From the NCBI GenBank assembly GCA_002453155.1, contig DKGG01000039.1, positions 67,714 to 131,713 of the forward strand: a stretch of DNA of 64,000 bases. The letters run 5' to 3'. The notes under the pieces were generated by a model, which saw only the letters and a list, made by a program, of their open reading frames with translations, was not told where the DNA came from and made no database searches. A program made the position numbers and the translations under genes. The stretch is from Bdellovibrionaceae bacterium UBA6776 (GTDB lineage Bacteria; Bdellovibrionota; Bdellovibrionia; Bdellovibrionales; UBA1609). The first letter of the stretch is position 1, and each line of letters starts with the position of its first letter. This document shows, piece by piece, positions 28,011 to 45,641 of this stretch.

Positions 28011-29347
28011 GAATTGTTCTCTCCATTCTTCTTTTAACAGGATCATTGTCGGCGTTCGGGCAAGCGGCTCCGGGTGCCACAGAGGTCGCTCCTGGAAGTG
28101 GCGGCAACCCTCAGCTTCAACAAGAGTTGCAAGCCGACTTGGATCAATGCGGAAACCAAAAAAAGCAGGCAGAGCTGTGTTGTGGAGATCCCATGCAGTG
28201 TGCCTCGGGTATGAGTGAAGAAAGCCAACAGCAGCTTTCTCAATTGATGGCCATGGGTGCGATGGGAGCTGCGGCCTATTTGAGTCAAAAAAAATCCGAT
28301 GGAGAAGGCGGAGATGACAACTCTGCCATGGCGGCAAGTTTACCGATGATTTGCCAAATGATGAGTGCCATGGGAAGTGCAGGAGCCGGTGCAAATGCGG
28401 GCGCTGCAGAAGTTTGTGATAAAGAGAGAAGCACTTGTGATTCCATGTGTGGAGAGATTGCGCAAAAGTGGAAGCAAAAACAAACCGAATGTCAGGCGTC
28501 GTCTTGCGCGGATGGTGAGTTGTTAAGTCAGGCGGTCACTCAATTTGATTCCACCATTTCAGAGTGTAAAAATCTGCAAGCCAATTCGGAAAGCATGAAC
28601 AAACAAGGAAAAGAATCGCAGCAAGCCGGTGGAGCCGGTGATTTTTGCAATCAGTTGGCCTCCATGATGACTGCGTCCAAGAAAGAGCCCACTCAGCCAC
28701 AGATTGATTGTAACGATCCGGTTCAGTTTCAAGCCAACCTTCAAATGTGTGTGGATTGCCAAAAGAATCCCGAAGACATCAATTGCGGAAAGGTTGCCGC
28801 GGTGAAAGGACCTAAAGCAGGGTTTGATGAAGGCAAGGTTACGGATTTGTCTTCGTTCAATACGGGATCGATTGATGGTTTGGATCAAAACGCAAAGTAC
28901 GGAGGGTTTGAACCCGTGGCCAGTCAATCGGGGACGGTCAGCGGAAGCGGCGGTGGAATTCCTGGTGGCGGAAATGATGGAAACTTTGGAGATCCAGCGC
29001 CGGCAAATGCAGGTGAGCGATCTGGCATCAATACGGACATTTTAAGTGGAGAGCGTGGAGGCGGTGGCTACTCTGCGGCCAGTGCAGGAATGGATGTGGA
29101 TCCAAGTGCCGGATTTTCTGGTTATGGTGGGGGAAGCGGAAGCAATGATGATGTGTCTGGATATAAGGGGATGGACTTGAAGAAGTTTCTTCCCGGTGGA
29201 GCTTTGGACCCATCTCGTCGTCTAGCGGGAGCACTTGTGAGCAGTGGTCAAATCAATCCAAAGAATCAAAATATTTTTGAACGCATTTCTTCGCGAATGA
29301 AAATGGTTTGCGGAACAAAGCGCTTGAAAGACTGCGGGGGTAAGTAG
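28007..29347 (+). CDS. Secreted Cys-rich, Gly-rich protein
   Basis: ATGA start/stop overlap with the upstream ORF. Signal peptide MRIVLSILLLTGSLSAFGQA, about 20 Cys, Met/Ala-rich segments and a Gly-rich C-terminal half. Confidence 0.55.
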   Translation: MRIVLSILLLTGSLSAFGQAAPGATEVAPGSGGNPQLQQELQADLDQCGNQKKQAELCCGDPMQCASGMSEESQQQLSQLMAMGAMGAAAYLSQKKSDGEGGDDNSAMAASLPMICQMMSAMGSAGAGANAGAAEVCDKERSTCDSMCGEIAQKWKQKQTECQASSCADGELLSQAVTQFDSTISECKNLQANSESMNKQGKESQQAGGAGDFCNQLASMMTASKKEPTQPQIDCNDPVQFQANLQMCVDCQKNPEDINCGKVAAVKGPKAGFDEGKVTDLSSFNTGSIDGLDQNAKYGGFEPVASQSGTVSGSGGGIPGGGNDGNFGDPAPANAGERSGINTDILSGERGGGGYSAASAGMDVDPSAGFSGYGGGSGSNDDVSGYKGMDLKKFLPGGALDPSRRLAGALVSSGQINPKNQNIFERISSRMKMVCGTKRLKDCGGK

Positions 29348-29377
29348 TTCAGCTTCGGCCATCATGGGCTTTCTTCG

Positions 29378-29700
29378 CATTTCTCCCTCGGACGATTCAC
29401 ATCCAGGCTTTTTGAATCTCTTTCTCAGAATCTCAAAGTTCATTGAACCTGACACACCCTTCCGTGGGTTCTTCTACATGTACAGCAAACTTTTCAAATT
29501 CAATTATTTCCTCGAGGAAGCACGCCCATCCATGGGCTCACAAGTCTTTGCCCTCCGGGCAAATCACTTCCTGTTTCCTTGAGGTTTACTCGAGGAAGCA
29601 ATTGAACCCGAAAAGTTACTTTACCGAAGAACCGCTATCCTTTGTGGAGGTTGTGGTGGGCGCAAAGAACCTGAAGATTGTTCCTTCTTTGATCGCCGCT
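29378..29700. repeat. Left inverted-repeat arm (contains a 67-nt insertion)
   Basis: Manual reverse-complement alignment to 30846-31093. Mismatches are sparse in the inner ~200 nt and more frequent toward the outer end. Confidence 0.7.
29512..29578. mobile_element. MITE/REP-like 67-nt insertion flanked by a TTTCC direct repeat
   Basis: It is present in the left arm but absent from the otherwise colinear right arm. It contains the palindromic core GCCCATCCATGGGC and the hairpin TTTGCCC-TCC-GGGCAAA. A related copy lies at 35783-35833. Confidence 0.55.
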
Positions 29701-29843
29701 CGATCACTAAAAACGATAATGTTCGAATTAGGTTCGGAATATCCGGGCACTGAATCCCCAAGTTGGATGACGCAAGTCTTCTTAGACACTAATAAACATT
29801 GCGTCTTAAATTTTAAATACTGAATGCGGCAAGGATGTTTCAA
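29635..29843 (-). pseudogene. Possible decayed HNH gene remnant (or the mirror image of the right-arm ORF end)
   Basis: The minus strand encodes ..SGDQRRNNLQVLCAHHNLHKG-stop, nearly identical to the intact HNH C-terminus. Upstream of it, FEHYRF-stop-stop-SSGDQ aligns with LDHISPVRRGGDQ but is broken by stops and a frameshift. Confidence 0.35.
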
Positions 29844-29896
29844 GCTTCACGAAACAAGAACGCACTTTGGTCTTTTTTTTATTTATGAAATATATT

Positions 29897-29925
29897 TTGA
29901 CAGGGGTTTTGTGTCGAAATTTATT
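29897..29925 (+). promoter_or_regulatory. Candidate sigma-70 promoter in the AT-rich leader of the HNH gene
   Basis: TTGACA, then 17 nt, then TTTATT, about 190 nt upstream of the ATG. This is a pattern match only. Confidence 0.2.
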
Positions 29926-30115
29926 TTTTAAACTCTCCACAAGATCTTTCTGAGCCATTGTCTAAAGTCACAGAGGCTTTGACCTAGGGAGCTTTAGAAA
30001 AAGACAACAAGGATGCTGTTGAAATTTTTAAATGTGCAAAGATCAAATTTTACGACTTAAAATTCACAAAATAAAACCCGTCATATTGTTCTCTCAACTT
30101 TAGAGGGAGAAAATC

Positions 30116-30910
30116 ATGGAACTTCACAAAGAGTTGCTTGCACTAAGGCTTAAAGAAAAACGAATCACTTCAGAAATTTTAACCAAACTTCAAGAGATGG
30201 AAGATTCTAGGGATTATCTTAGAATGGGGTATTCATCTTTGTTCGATTATTTGGTGAGAGGTCTCAATTATTCTGAGTCCTCAGCCTACCAAAGACAGTC
30301 TTGCGTTCGACTTTCTCGGGAACTTCCCGAAATTAAAAATAAAATCGATCAAGGAGTTCTTACGCTATCCACAGTGGCCACAGCCTTTAAGCACATTCGT
30401 AAGAAACTTGTTGAAGAAAAGCGTCAAATTTTAAAGTCATTAGAGGAAAAGTCGGCTCGTGAAGCGAAGAAGATGTTTTTAGAACCTATGCCCGCCATTA
30501 AAATCAAAAAGACGGAGCATGCAGATAAAGTACTTTTGAGATTGGAACTGACCCACGAACAAAACCAAAAATTAGAAAAACTAAAGGCGCTGAAGTCACA
30601 CAAGTACAACATCGAAAGTCTTCTAATACATCTGATAGAAAAGGAACTTAAATCTTTCGAAAGTGTTCAGATGAAATCTTCTAAATCCAAGGAAGACTTT
30701 AACGAGCCAAGATCAAAAAATCCTCGTCAAATTTCCAAGCGCCTAAGAAATGACGTGTTGAAGACCGCAAACTACAAATGTCAATTTCCCGGGTGTGAGT
30801 CTGACCACTTTCTTCAATTGGATCATATTTCTCCCGTTCGCCGAGGCGGCGATCAAAGAAGGAACAATCTTCAAGTGCTTTGCGCCAACCACAACCTCCA
30901 CAAAGGATAG
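30116..30910 (+). CDS. HNH endonuclease with a DUF222-like N-terminal helical domain
   Basis: GGGAGA RBS. The C-terminal CQFPGCESDHFLQLDHISPVRRGGDQRRNNLQVLCANHNLHKG is an HNH motif. The N-terminal GYSSLFDYLVRGLNYSESSAYQR..LSRELPEI..G.LTLS is DUF222-like. Confidence 0.85.
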   Translation: MELHKELLALRLKEKRITSEILTKLQEMEDSRDYLRMGYSSLFDYLVRGLNYSESSAYQRQSCVRLSRELPEIKNKIDQGVLTLSTVATAFKHIRKKLVEEKRQILKSLEEKSAREAKKMFLEPMPAIKIKKTEHADKVLLRLELTHEQNQKLEKLKALKSHKYNIESLLIHLIEKELKSFESVQMKSSKSKEDFNEPRSKNPRQISKRLRNDVLKTANYKCQFPGCESDHFLQLDHISPVRRGGDQRRNNLQVLCANHNLHKG

Positions 30911-31093
30911 CGGTTCTTCGGTAAAGTAACTTTTCGGGTTCAATTACTTCCTCGAGTAAACCTCAAGGAAATAATTGAATCTGAAAAGTTTGCTGTACAT
31001 GTAGAAGAACCCACGAAAGAGTGTGTCGGGCTCAATGAGCTTTGAGATTCTGGAAAAAATATTCAAGAAGCCTGGATATGAATTTCCTCAGAA
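30846..31093. repeat. Right inverted-repeat arm, overlapping the last 65 nt of the HNH ORF
   Basis: Reverse complement of the left arm. It ends 4 nt before the stop codon of the convergent murU-like gene. Confidence 0.7.
30912..31011 (+). other. Extended ~100-nt imperfect hairpin immediately 3' of the HNH stop codon (candidate structured RNA or DNA recombination site)
   Basis: Nested stems: GGTTCTTC/GAAGAACC, CTTTTCGGGTTCAATTA/TAATTGAATCTGAAAAG (with two G-U pairs in the sense orientation) and TTCCTCGAG/CTCAAGGAA. Confidence 0.45.
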
Positions 31094-31096
31094 AGG

Positions 31097-32146
31097 CTAC
31101 AGGCCTTCGATATCTTTCAACTGGCCATCAGAAGTCAGAACCTTCTTTATTGCACCCATGTAGAATCCAGAAATGGAATCTGGCAAAGGGTGTTTCCAAC
31201 GGTAAAAAGTGCTAGGAGCTTGAACGTCAATAAATCGAATCTCATCGGACTGTGCCGGTTGAGGTCCAGGAGAAATCAAACACATATGGTGTTGAGGATT
31301 GGTAAATCGCAATCGATCCAATTTTTCATAGCGGAAAATATCATTCCGTTGATAATTTCTCCAACCGGGCTGGAATCGATCCATGATATCGACCAAGTTC
31401 CATTGGGACTGATGATCTTTCAGAACTCGCATCAAATCTAACTGTGCCTGAGCCAGATCTTTCAAATTTCCGGTCTCATAAAAACGCACATCTTTAGATT
31501 TAAAGATCTGAATCCATTCCTTCTTTTGCAGAGCCTCTGCAAACACATCCAAAAAAATATTTTGCGAATGGGAATGAATATAGGAATAGATGTCCGGAGA
31601 GCAAATCATCACAGAGGCATAGTGCAGACACAGGGCATTTTCAGAGGGTGCGGATGTGCCAACACCCAAAAATCTTCCAGACTCCGAATGCCAGACTCCT
31701 GAAAAATCCTTCCCAGCTCCAGGATGAGGAATGCACAACACCGTTGCAAGAGCTTTGCGCTCGTTGTGAAACAAAAGCATCTCCTCAAGGACTTGAGGAT
31801 TTTTTGTCAAAATCACCCCATCGCCATTTGCAATCACAAAAGGTTCTCTAGAATTCAACGCATCCATCTTGAAATGATTCAAGGGAAGGGCACTTCCCAA
31901 AAGTGTTTCTTCATGATGAACATGAAAACGATAGTTGGGATGAAGGTGTCGTTTGAAACTCTTCACAACCGTGTCTGGCAAATGGTGGGTGTTGATGTGA
32001 AGATCTGTCAGATTCAGACTTTCCAAAAGCTGCAAAGGGTATCCCCACATGGGAACGTTCAGCACGGGAACAGCAGGCTTGGCGATATCATGGGTCAAGG
32101 GTTGAAGTCGTCGACCTTCACCCGCACACAGAATTAAGGCTCGCAT
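31097..32146 (-). CDS. murU: Sugar-1-phosphate nucleotidyltransferase, MurU-like, with a C-terminal extension
   Basis: N-terminal ALILCAGEGRRLQPLTHDIAKPAVPV nucleotidyltransferase motif. It is adjacent to, and overlaps by 13 nt, an AmgK-like kinase gene. The MurNAc-1-P specificity is inferred from that pairing only. Confidence 0.65.
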   Translation of the reverse strand: MRALILCAGEGRRLQPLTHDIAKPAVPVLNVPMWGYPLQLLESLNLTDLHINTHHLPDTVVKSFKRHLHPNYRFHVHHEETLLGSALPLNHFKMDALNSREPFVIANGDGVILTKNPQVLEEMLLFHNERKALATVLCIPHPGAGKDFSGVWHSESGRFLGVGTSAPSENALCLHYASVMICSPDIYSYIHSHSQNIFLDVFAEALQKKEWIQIFKSKDVRFYETGNLKDLAQAQLDLMRVLKDHQSQWNLVDIMDRFQPGWRNYQRNDIFRYEKLDRLRFTNPQHHMCLISPGPQPAQSDEIRFIDVQAPSTFYRWKHPLPDSISGFYMGAIKKVLTSDGQLKDIEGL

Positions 32147-35582: not shown

Positions 35583-35782
35583 ATCTTCGACTCCTTTTCA
35601 CAAAGTGACTTAATTATTATCGTCGAAAATTTGAACAACTTTACAGGACCTGGACTTATTGCCTGTAAAGATCCATGACTTGGTCCAGTCCAGATTTGAG
35701 TTTCTTCGCCCGTGCCAAAAATTTCATAAAATCTCAATTGCACAAAGGCCATGGCAAAGCAATTTGGCTATTAGAAATAGAC

Positions 35783-35833
35783 CCGCCCATCCATGGGCTC
35801 ACCAGTATTTGCCCTATAGGGCAAATCGCTTCA
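35783..35833. repeat. Second copy of the REP/MITE-like element seen at 29521-29571
   Basis: CCGCCCATCCATGGGCTCACCAGTATTTGCCCTATAGGGCAAATCGCTTC aligns with the 29.5-kb copy at roughly four-fifths identity by eye. Confidence 0.55.
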
Positions 35834-35884
35834 CGCTTACTGGAGGTCTCTTTCTAAAGCCAAATTACTATGCCAATGTCTTTG

Positions 35885-36007
35885 CGAATAAAGAATATAA
35901 AAAGGGCCCATGGATGGGCGGGTCTGAAGCTGCGAGCAAGTAGCTTTGAAATACCTCAGGCGAATTAAGAATATCAAAAGGGCCCAAAGGGATGGGCGGG
36001 TGTAAAG
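35885..36007. repeat. Two ~46-nt direct repeats (35885-35930 and 35961-36007), each carrying the inverted core GGGCCCATGGATGGGCGGGT
   Basis: CGAATAAAGAATATAAAAAGGGCCCATGGATGGGCGGGTCTGAAG versus CGAATTAAGAATATCAAAAGGGCCCAAAGGGATGGGCGGGTGTAAAG. The core is the reverse complement of the 5' end of the element at 35783. Confidence 0.6.
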
Positions 36008-37729
36008 TTACAGGTGGCTTTGAAGTTCGATAAACTGGAAGTATCCACCTTTTTTGTCCATCAGCTCCTGATGGGTGCCCATTTCCACAATCTGTCCCTT
36101 GTCCATCACGACAATGCGGTCGCAGTCACGGATGGTGGACAGGCGGTGAGCAATGATCAAAGCGGTTCGGCCCTTCATCAGCTGATCAAGACCTCTTTGA
36201 ACTTCGACTTCACTTTGTGAGTCCAACGCACTGGTGGCTTCGTCCAAAATCAAAATAGGAGCGTCTTTAAAAATTGCGCGAGCAATGCTGATCCGCTGTT
36301 TCTCGCCACCAGAGAACAGACTGCCCCGGTCTCCCACCCGAGCCTCGTAACCCTGCTCGTTCTTCGAAATAAAGTCGTGGGCATTGGCCAACTTTGCGGC
36401 GGATTCAACACTGGAATCATCTTTGGAAAAATCTCCCGATTGAATGTTTCGAGAGACCGAATCCGAAAATAAGAACACGTCCTGGGTAACCAGTGCCACA
36501 TGAGAACGCAATTCGTTCACTTTCAAGTGGTTCAAGGGCACTCCACCAATTCGAATCTCTCCATCGGTGGGATCAAAAAAGCGCGGCAAAAGATTGATCA
36601 TGGTGGACTTCCCAGCTCCGCTGGTTCCCACCAAAGCCACCTTTTCTCCTCGAGAAATGGTCAAATTCACACCGTTTAAAACTTTTTTGTTTTCATAGCT
36701 GAAGCTGACATTTTTGAATTCAATTTCTTTCCAGTCTTCAGGAAACTTTTCAGGAGATTCCGGATCATGAATTTCATCCGTAGAATCCAAAATGTCTCGC
36801 AGTCGTTCAAGGGCCACAGAGGCCTGTTGAATTTTAATATAACTGTCTTGGATTTTCTTGACGGAATCGCTCAAGAAAATTGCCGCGGCAAAGAAAGAGA
36901 GAAAATCTCCCACAATCCATGCGCCCGAGCGAATTCGAAACCCAATGTAAATCAAAACTCCGGCAATAAGAACGGCGACCAAACTTTCCGAAATGGGTCC
37001 AGTGCTCTCTTCTCGAGAAATGATTTTTTCCCGGGATTGAATGTAGTTGTCTGCCTCCCGTTCAAAACGGTTTTTCAGTTCCGGCTGAAGGTTAAAAGCC
37101 TGAACAATTCGCGTTCCGTCCAAGCTTTCTTTGATGGTTTGAGTGATGTCTTCCATGGCCTCTTGGTTTCGGGCCGAATACTTGCGAATGCTTCGAGCCA
37201 TCCGCCGCGAAACCGTAGAAATGATCGGAAGTGCCAAAATCAAAAAGAGAGTGAGCTTCCAGTCGATATAAACCAAGTAGCCAAAACTTAAGATCGTCAA
37301 AAAAGGCTCTCGAATCACATCCGCAAGACGACGAAACCCAGTTTGAACAATGTAGATGTCATTCAGCAAACGACTGATCAATCCGCCAGAGCCTCGAACA
37401 AAGTTTTGAAAGAAGCTCAGATTTAAACTCAAATATTTATGCATCAGTTGGCGTCGCAAATTCAAAGCCACTTCTTCTGCGGTCAAAATCATCAAGTACA
37501 TGTGAAAGTAGCGGGCGATGGCTGCGACCACCCAGAGGGCCGCAATCAAAATTGGAATTTGATAGATTTTAATGTTGTCGTTGGAGCTCCAAACCTGCTC
37601 CAAATTTTTAATCAATGGGGCATTGTAAAACTTGGCGCCGCTGATCACCAATCCAAGCAGAAGAGCGACAATGATTCGACTTTTGTATTTTTTAAATTCA
37701 GGCCAAAGTGTCTGGATGATGGCTTTCAC
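36008..37729 (-). CDS. ABC exporter, fused permease/ATPase (MsbA-like)
   Basis: Six-TM N-terminal half, Walker A GTSGAGKST, signature LFSGGEKQR and Walker B ILILDEATSALD. Confidence 0.85.
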   Translation of the reverse strand: MKAIIQTLWPEFKKYKSRIIVALLLGLVISGAKFYNAPLIKNLEQVWSSNDNIKIYQIPILIAALWVVAAIARYFHMYLMILTAEEVALNLRRQLMHKYLSLNLSFFQNFVRGSGGLISRLLNDIYIVQTGFRRLADVIREPFLTILSFGYLVYIDWKLTLFLILALPIISTVSRRMARSIRKYSARNQEAMEDITQTIKESLDGTRIVQAFNLQPELKNRFEREADNYIQSREKIISREESTGPISESLVAVLIAGVLIYIGFRIRSGAWIVGDFLSFFAAAIFLSDSVKKIQDSYIKIQQASVALERLRDILDSTDEIHDPESPEKFPEDWKEIEFKNVSFSYENKKVLNGVNLTISRGEKVALVGTSGAGKSTMINLLPRFFDPTDGEIRIGGVPLNHLKVNELRSHVALVTQDVFLFSDSVSRNIQSGDFSKDDSSVESAAKLANAHDFISKNEQGYEARVGDRGSLFSGGEKQRISIARAIFKDAPILILDEATSALDSQSEVEVQRGLDQLMKGRTALIIAHRLSTIRDCDRIVVMDKGQIVEMGTHQELMDKKGGYFQFIELQSHL

Positions 37730-45328: not shown

Positions 45329-45641
45329 AAAAGTCAGAAAGGAATGCAGAAAAAATACCTTGTGGGTCTGAGTGATCCAAGTAAACCCATGATTCACAAA
45401 GTGGGCGACCATTATAGGAACTTTAGGCTTCTCAATCGAAATGAGCTTGCTCACCATTCCCAGGGACAGTCCCCAATGCTATTGGCTTGTAGGGTTTACT
45501 TTTGTCATCAGCCCACAAGACACTTTCAAGTTACCAAACCCTAAGAAGCCCCACAAGAGGGGGGCTTACCGTTTCGTGCAAATAGTTAAAAAACCTCTCT
45601 TCGTCCTGTGTACTTTTGAGAAAAAGATCCGAAAAAAAAGA

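Follow-up and report, generated by a model that had tools for sequence, protein, structure and literature searches.

Modular palindromic repeats at the borders of a multi-copy HNH nuclease gene in marine Bdellovibrio-like bacteria

A long hairpin directly follows the gene for a small HNH nuclease in a stretch of 64,000 nt of Bdellovibrionaceae bacterium UBA6776 DNA (contig DKGG01000039.1, positions 67,714 to 131,713), which is the window analyzed here and to which all positions refer. This hairpin (30912-31011) is probably a decayed member of a lineage-specific family of modular palindromes, akin to repetitive extragenic palindromic (REP) sequences and MITEs (miniature inverted-repeat transposable elements), that lies at the borders of a multi-copy HNH cassette. 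The arrangement would resemble that of REPtrons, i.e. REP sequences or REP doublets forming hairpins (REPINs) plus a REP-associated tyrosine transposase (RAYT) gene, and we put the probability of this reading at about 0.6. Both the repeat family and the HNH gene are those of marine Bdellovibrio-like bacteria. A first-pass annotation of the window, made from the letters alone, had proposed that the hairpin is a nuclease-associated RNA, comparable to the right-end element RNA (reRNA) of TnpB or the omega RNA of IscB.

The hairpin, its inverted counterpart and the core module

The three stems drawn for the hairpin by the first-pass annotation were all recovered (Table 1), and the fold of 30846-31030 reaches -61.8 kcal/mol against a shuffle mean of -39.8 kcal/mol (z = -5.5; 0/200 shuffles as good). 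The opposite strand of this segment folds equally well (-62.4 kcal/mol, z = -5.6). The hairpin belongs to the right arm of an inverted repeat that begins 65 nt ahead of the HNH stop codon, as had been noticed before and as alignment with 29395-29699 confirms, and that extends to 31083, further than had been described. Complementarity between the arms amounts to 97% for 30846-30971 against 29574-29699 and to 89% for 30961-31083 against 29395-29517. In the left arm, the HNH open reading frame (ORF) is reduced to its final 65 nt, with an in-frame TGA two codons 5' of the homology boundary.

Table 1. Coordinates of the repeat features, the HNH cassette and the 6S RNA gene within the window
Feature	Position	Strand	Description and basis
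Whole inserted block, 1,749 bp	29348..31096	.	Left arm, HNH 5' region, HNH gene and right arm; between convergent stop codons
Left arm of inverted repeat	29395..29699	-	Decayed 65-nt HNH tail, core-intact hairpin, downstream module remnant
Left-arm A-type long-stem unit	29467..29633	-	Core intact
Core module, ~72 nt	29517..29588	-	Four helices, consensus GACCTCCAGCAAGCAGGATGCGTTTTGCCCGAAGGGCAAATGCTGGTGAGCCCATGGATGGGCGnGTC; R1 85 bits, E = 5e-22; covariation
HNH cassette 5' region, ~300 nt	29787..30115	+	Conserved in all paralogues
HNH gene, 264 aa	30116..30910	+	ORF; N-terminal part helical, HNH domain residues ~208-264
Right arm of inverted repeat	30846..31083	+	65 nt of ORF end, long hairpin, 3' half of second module type
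Hairpin under study	30912..31011	+	A-type long-stem unit minus apical core; fold, alignment to left copy and L082/L083/L173, stem covariation
Outer stem	30912-30919 with 31004-31011		GGTTCTTC with GAAGAACC
17-bp stem	30930-30946 with 30972-30988		CTTTTCGGGTTCAATTA with TAATTGAATCTGAAAAG; two G·U pairs, G30936·T30982 and G30938·T30980
Apical stem			TTCCTCGAG/CTCAAGGAA, atop the 17-bp stem
B-type module remnant, 3' half	31004..31083	+	Degenerate P3 GAAGAACCCACGAAAGAGTGTGTC plus right arm
Orphan module	35743..35884	-	Full core 35778-35850 inside its own 27-bp stems; 4.9 kb from HNH gene
Degenerate core remnants adjoining orphan	35843..36004	+	Two remnants, P3-like GGGCCCATGGATGGGCGGGTC
6S/SsrS RNA gene	45352-45525	-	61.1 bits vs gathering score 46.4; sole Rfam match in window

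The left copy carries 67 additional bases at the hairpin tip, which had gone unmentioned in the first-pass annotation and which form part of a core module of ~72 nt. Where the left copy reads CCTCAAGGAAA/CAGG...CCTCGAGGAAA/TAATTG, the right copy reads CCTCAAGGAAATAATTG. From this comparison of sequences, the right hairpin looks like a deletion derivative whose core was lost between the 11-nt direct repeats CCTCAAGGAAA and CCTCGAGGAAA. The closest homologues, with 85% amino-acid identity (comparison loci L082 and L083), have retained the insert, and L173 likewise still has its core.

A covariance model of the core module, R1, was applied to the window and to related loci. In the window it finds two full cores (29517-29588 and 35778-35850) plus several remnants. 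Four helices are supported by an alignment of 13 copies, with changes on both sides in 15/23 pairs. In an alignment of 66 distinct copies fitted to R1, 90.8% of the cells are paired (slid controls 30-45%) and double changes occur in 19 of the 23 pairs, in 220 cells against 67 after shuffling (0/500 shuffles as high); as the copies are related, these covariation counts are not independent events. Nearly invariant among the unpaired positions are the motifs AGCAGGAKGCG and TGAG and a GGA in two loops, and G·U and A·C combinations inside the core are balanced (30 vs 28). The two GGA loops stand in the contexts CAGGAUG and CAUGGAUG (e.g. at 29517-29588 on the minus strand), and we take them to resemble CsrA/RsmA binding sites.

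Around the core, long stems of different sub-families occur. In L082, L083, L167, L172, L173, L194, L196, L198, L200 and other loci, an A-type stem, the kind to which the hairpin under study belongs, stands behind the stop codon or behind a fragment of the ORF tail. Covariation had been put forward in the first-pass annotation as a check of the structure, and the pairing came out positive: 14 distinct copies of the A-type stem show compensatory changes in 16/29 pairs (37 cells vs 13.6 shuffled; 0/500 as high). B-type units, with stems TTATTCCCAAATTCTAAA..CATAGAA enclosing a variant core, take the place of the A-type in L084, L166, L171, L177 and L200. The arms of both types are conserved over ~30 bp around the core in at least eight loci each, as in the terminal inverted repeats of MITEs. 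The 3' half of a B-type unit is also present in the window, where its GAAGAACC serves as the 3' strand of the outer stem of the hairpin; this remnant, which was additionally compared with the B-type units of L084, L171 and L167, gives a weak R1 match (30957-31029).

Units are combined in several ways. In L170 and L200, the true stop codon is followed by a B-type unit and then by a second CACAAAGGATAG tail that carries an A-type hairpin, and CACAAAGG is duplicated around the B-type unit in both loci. An array of cores with a period of ~118 nt lies upstream of the gene in L084, and an inverted HNH tail of ~230 nt lies upstream of the gene in L173. The length of ORF tail beside the repeat ranges from 12 to ~230 nt in other loci and differs among L170, L200 and L173, so the start 65 nt inside the ORF, which had been regarded as the boundary of the element, is a truncation point and not a functional boundary.

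Two minor observations concern the arms themselves. The 65-nt ORF tails (29635-29699, minus strand, and 30846-30910, plus strand) differ at three positions, two of them synonymous and one an Asn-to-His change at a variable position. L082, which has an intact gene at the site of the left arm, shows the spelling of the right copy, so the three changes arose in the left stump; they are too few to argue selection. Separately, the 3' arms of A-type stems vary in a three-base rhythm, CTn GAG GAG nTC nnn GAA nnT GAn AAn, readable as LEE(I/V)..E.EK (e.g. 30962-31011, L172, L178, L197 and L198), which hints at coding descent. The arms were rejected as present coding sequence on account of in-frame stops in several copies and of the ~118-nt array period, which is not a multiple of 3.

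Linkage to HNH genes and history of the locus

Scanning of 61 related HNH loci (317 kb) with R1 gave 100 core matches. For 11 loci the 4-kb flanks are complete; here the 29 matches all lie within 1,369 nt of the HNH gene and 28 of them within 900 nt, a clustering with P ~6e-14 under uniform placement, and 8/11 of these loci have at least one match. The strand of the cores depends on the side of the gene: downstream, 25 are on the plus and four on the minus strand, and upstream, 22 are on the minus and eight on the plus strand (Fisher 5e-6). As downstream cores are mostly on the plus strand and upstream cores mostly on the minus strand, the modules face outward on either side.

The linkage is restricted to part of the family. 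No module follows the stop codon in the close paralogues L086/L169, L174 and L181, with a plain terminator found in L086 instead, and HNH loci at 55-66% identity have neither a module nor a flanking inverted repeat; none was seen at more distant homologues either. Conservation of the element with the 3' end of the HNH ORF, as claimed at first, therefore holds beside a subset of the homologues, and a lack of the downstream hairpin at homologous genes, which the first-pass annotation had itself named as counting against its RNA, was found both in paralogues and in homologues at ≤ 66% identity. Our searches of the literature on HNH genes with REP/RAYT or MITE elements returned nothing describing an HNH-module linkage, and a search with the hairpin sequence returned nothing related. 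The linkage thus appears to be undescribed.

The HNH gene belongs to a multi-copy family of Bdellovibrionota. We collected 161 homologues, with several paralogues per metagenome-assembled genome (MAG; locus tags CL676_* and DCL41_*); one GTDB MAG has four HNH loci, and numerous contigs end at the HNH gene. Earlier work has noted HNH genes in several strain-specific copies among Bdellovibrio-like organisms, with copy positions that differ between strains (PMC13147790). A phage origin was considered and rejected: viral contigs are without the module and gave just two matches, both limited to the HNH motif. Pfam recognizes HNH as the sole domain of the window protein. The earlier label DUF222-HNH did not survive, as DUF222 (PF02720) has no match in the window protein and matches one of 26 family members, at E = 0.037. 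The AlphaFold2 model (predicted local distance difference test score, pLDDT, 85) comprises a C-terminal HNH domain and a helical N-terminal part. A fold search returned HNH domains only, plus weak ParB/Noc-like helices (template modelling score, TM, ~0.36-0.38, target-normalised), and the defence-system models of PADLOC gave generic HNH matches only.

These properties bear on the proposal that the hairpin, starting in the last 65 nt of the ORF, is a trans-acting partner or guide of the HNH protein in the manner of omega RNA or reRNA, which we consider very improbable. The layout of an RNA over the ORF end resembles that of TnpB, the module is tightly linked to the HNH gene, its structure is conserved in a subset of loci, and the HNH part gives a weak score with the NCBIfam IscB model (36.5 bits). 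This score compares with a cut-off of 175, however, and covers the HNH part only; sequence matches to PDB structures are likewise limited to the HNH motif, and Pfam, the IscB model and the PDB sequence and fold searches reveal no RuvC, TnpB-like, bridge-helix or Nop-type RNA-binding part. Moreover, the element is missing from many homologues, the boundary at -65 is not conserved, and the copy in the window is without the conserved core. The same modules occur inverted upstream of the gene and as orphans, no variable guide-like segment adjoins a constant scaffold, and there is no match to HEARO or any other Rfam family.

The other place where such an RNA was sought is the conserved region 5' of the gene. 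Its boxes are CTACTAAACGTTGCGGC, a TTGAC located ~225 nt ahead of the ATG, and AAAACCCATGGTAAT, behind which a small hairpin covers the ribosome-binding site. With RNAalifold not a single consensus pair was predicted here, and a structured 5'-region RNA as an omega-RNA analogue was rejected. The region is common to the cassettes of the window, L082, L084, L165-L195 and L002-L009 and implies a long leader. In two loci it is replaced by pure tandem repeats that run up to the HNH start codon, (AGAACAAG)n at L166 1-83 and (AAACAAC)n at L178 1-91; these could be an assembly artefact or a real microsatellite.

Comparison with syntenic loci shows how the block came to its place. In L245 and L247 (NTP-transferase 49% identical) the gene order is intact throughout; there, 4 and 0 nt separate the convergent stop codons, and neither an HNH gene nor an R1 match is present. 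Likewise, the spacer between the ABC-transporter gene and the sigma-54 activator gene, which houses the orphan cluster in the window, measures 125-144 nt in relatives and ~425 nt in the window (~300 nt longer), and the relatives have no module there. As neither is present in relatives, the HNH block (29348-31096) and the orphan cluster are both insertions, on a comparison that is one between species. At the population level no empty site was found among 22 contigs with an identical NTP-transferase gene, which share one context, the single exception ending inside the HNH gene.

A 1,715-nt contig from ENA (L082), compared with 29181-30971, represents another allele of the same locus, in which the HNH gene is opposite and reads toward the 446-aa gene. 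Its tail and flank are 99.4% identical to 29181-29699, its gene body is 83% identical to the window gene at the nucleotide level, and the C-terminal third of the protein is identical. As L082 has a full HNH gene at the site of the left arm, this arm is what remains of a second HNH copy, as opposed to a partner designed for the right arm. From their sequences, the two alleles suggest gene replacement at a single locus, or conversion between paralogous genes there. An origin of the L082 allele by simple inversion was rejected, its HNH body being only 83% identical.

Strand signal and competing explanations

The first-pass annotation had pointed out two substitutions of the left-arm copy in the 17-bp stem, equivalent to 30946 A>G and 30981 C>T. 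On the HNH-sense strand, both indeed replace a Watson-Crick pair by G·U, and this had been read as selection on a sense-strand RNA. The asymmetry itself is real: mismatches in the long stems comprise 172 G·U against 83 A·C in module orientation, with an excess of G·U in 46 modules vs 9 (sign test 4e-7) that is present on both locus strands, although the copies are related and the counts are not independent events. In HNH-sense orientation the numbers are 134 vs 121. As the excess tracks module orientation, the asymmetry is a property of the module and not of the HNH transcript, and the inferred selection on an HNH-sense RNA is not supported. Nor does the bias separate RNA from single-stranded DNA (ssDNA), since G·T wobbles are tolerated in ssDNA hairpins and strand-biased mutation is possible.

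An RNA-level role in cis is possible. Modules in the 3' untranslated region of the HNH gene or in neighbouring transcripts might protect the 3' end, insulate convergent genes or bind a protein through their GGA loops, and we regard this as a rather unlikely explanation. The co-orientation of the downstream modules with the HNH gene (25 vs 4) would fit it, as would the stem covariation and the G·U excess, the invariant GGA in two hairpin loops, the position of the hairpin in the gap between convergent genes and the orphan of the window, which is in sense orientation between two co-directional genes. Upstream modules are mainly antisense to the HNH gene, however, and in L084 antisense to the upstream neighbour too; orphan modules in other Bdellovibrionota are in sense orientation to their neighbours in ~5 cases and antisense in 3-4, and inside the core G·U and A·C are balanced. 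Searched at gathering thresholds, the complete window has 6S RNA as its one Rfam match; by E-value, 29300-31150 and 35650-36050 yielded nothing beyond chance matches to microRNA hairpins, with no HEARO and no Csr/Rsm family. The compared DNA contains no csrA gene, which is uninformative. An intrinsic terminator, which had been named as an alternative in the first-pass annotation, was likewise not found anywhere from the HNH stop codon to 31093: after the hairpin comes CACGAAAGAG, with no U-tract, so a rho-independent terminator was rejected.

The modules could also be cleavage or recognition sites of the HNH nuclease, with the cassette spreading by cutting and repair copying and thereby becoming embedded in module clusters. 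Judged from the sequences, such homing seems unlikely. Modules do cluster, inverted, at both cassette borders; truncated HNH tails recur head-to-head upstream of the gene (window, L173), HNH tail fragments are duplicated around the inserted B-type unit in L170 and L200, and the positions of HNH copies vary between strains (PMC13147790). Against this, no module is split by the cassette, whole units being present on each side, and module-free cassettes exist.

The reading as REP/MITE-like palindromes accounts for these features as follows. The unit is a long stem of ~20-30 bp, differing between sub-families, that encloses the asymmetric four-helix core of ~72 nt, and units are nested and arrayed. 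They accumulate, mostly facing outward, at both borders of the cassette, which consists of the ~300-nt 5' region and the ORF, and the whole looks like long modular terminal inverted repeats or like a REPtron with an HNH nuclease replacing the RAYT. In the window, a block of 1.75 kb was inserted between two convergent genes, and the core of the right hairpin was apparently deleted; the left arm is the stump of an HNH copy in opposite orientation. Established by the comparisons are the existence of the family, the evolution of its stems with pairing preserved, the clustering at HNH genes, the rule of orientation, the origin by insertion and the lack of modules at many HNH homologues. We infer that each unit folds while single-stranded, in its own orientation, with ssDNA at replication or mobilisation as the simplest case, and that the units may spread by transposition or recombination, possibly with help from the HNH protein. 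The ORF tail would lie within the repeat solely because copies were truncated or converted there, and effects on the HNH mRNA, for example if its 3' end were protected or the convergent gene insulated from it, would be incidental.

Several points weigh against this reading. A number of HNH copies are module-free, so the cassette does not need the modules. A target-site duplication is not demonstrable, because the flanks are themselves palindromic: CTTCCTCGAG flanks the core of the left copy and is a palindrome, and the flanks of the orphan are inverted, not direct. Neither a transposition event nor a transposase was identified, and HNH enzymes are not known to act as transposases. The covariation, the G·U bias and the invariant unpaired motifs are equally expected of a functional RNA, and modules downstream mostly share the orientation of the HNH gene. 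In DNA palindromes, conversion from arm to arm can also produce compensatory changes without selection. Finally, all comparative DNA consists of metagenome contigs, many of which break at these repeats.

A tentative and on balance doubtful extension is that the HNH protein, with its ParB-like helical DNA-binding part, and the core modules constitute a new functional pair, REPtron- or IS-like but with an HNH nuclease in the role of an HUH or DDE enzyme, that moves or copies the cassette and its satellites through recognition of the four-helix module. The module might then be read as ssDNA or as processed RNA, with the conserved GCCCATGGATGGGC hairpin, found too in repeat families of unrelated phyla, as a recognition knob.

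Known repeat systems and wider occurrence

Background on REP sequences, bacterial interspersed mosaic elements (BIMEs), REPINs and RAYT genes is available (PMC2817692, PMC3116915, PMC3337134), and judged by analogy the REPtron is the closest known system. In both cases short extragenic palindromes are clustered or arrayed, stand inverted on either side of an associated nuclease gene, have dispersed copies and follow a strand-specific hairpin logic; here, the flanking cores are inverted (25/4 downstream, 22/8 upstream) and the orphan core at 35778-35850 is a dispersed copy. Unlike in REPtrons, the protein is an HNH nuclease and not an HUH/Y1 (IS200-like) RAYT, and its gene is multi-copy, whereas RAYT genes are usually single-copy. 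The units are larger, with a 72-nt four-helix core and variable stems of 20-30 bp, and copies away from the gene seem few, with one orphan cluster in 64 kb. Inspection by eye of the core alignment and the A-type arms revealed no conserved GTAG/CGTC tag at the palindrome's foot, the GTAG at 31001-31004 being GTGG in L173 and L083.

The units also resemble MITEs and modular repeats such as Correia, ERIC/IRU, RUP and BOX elements, in that they are non-coding, ~130-150 bp long and end in terminal inverted repeats. The hairpins formed are long in both cases, the units show nesting and mosaicism, and related genomes may have or lack them. A modular make-up is also known from BOX elements. The present units differ in that the internal core is conserved and the terminal stems vary by sub-family, and in that no target-site duplication has been demonstrated. 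Tight clustering around one gene family is not typical of MITEs and modular repeats. Background to this comparison includes a review (PMC10969869).

With the systems of obligate mobile element-guided activity (OMEGA; IscB with omega RNA/HEARO, TnpB with reRNA), the locus shares a small nuclease gene, repeated and apparently mobile DNA, a structured element at the ORF end and an HNH motif related to those of IscB and Cas9. It differs from them in having no RuvC, no HEARO or Rfam match and no guide segment, in an element that is not conserved across homologues, and in the occurrence of this element on both sides in opposite orientations and as orphans; the analogy with reRNA and omega RNA drawn at first is not supported. 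A further comparison is REP13E12 of mycobacteria, a multi-copy repeat of ~1.3 kb that encodes a DUF222-HNH protein, helical in its N-terminal part and with the HNH motif at the C-terminus. No transposition mechanism is known for REP13E12, and it is not known to have structured palindromic modules. No DUF222 is detected in the present protein, and the phylum differs.

If the linkage is functional, these would be the first structured REP-like repeats tied to an HNH nuclease gene in place of a RAYT or classical transposase. The linkage would then also give access to the spread of multi-copy HNH genes in Bdellovibrio-like predators, of which the literature notes no more than strain-specific copies (PMC13147790). 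Compact and strongly covarying, with invariant loop motifs, the core module merits an Rfam-style description whichever molecule folds. More generally, repeat biology alone can yield a G·U-asymmetric hairpin that overlaps the end of a nuclease ORF, with no guide RNA needed.

Copies and parts of the core occur beyond the HNH genes. The stems of the orphan cluster in the window differ from those of the HNH-linked copies. Outside Bdellovibrionota only the P3 hairpin is shared, at 17-27 bits. The 18-mer TGAGCCCATGGATGGGCG at the tip of the core recurs in unrelated repeat families of other phyla (L090-L164). No HNH homologue was found near these repeats in 75 loci, and an Rfam scan of 18 of the other-phylum loci gave one tRNA and no Csr/Rsm family; the recurrence across phyla could be convergent. 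About 15 of the loci lie in one Lysobacteraceae MAG and several in the Pseudomonadota bin P01_B01_bin.103, with further ones in Geopsychrobacteraceae, Calditrichia, Treponema and Pseudohongiellaceae. The 18-mer frequently stands beside a second hairpin with an AUGGAU or AGGGAU loop.

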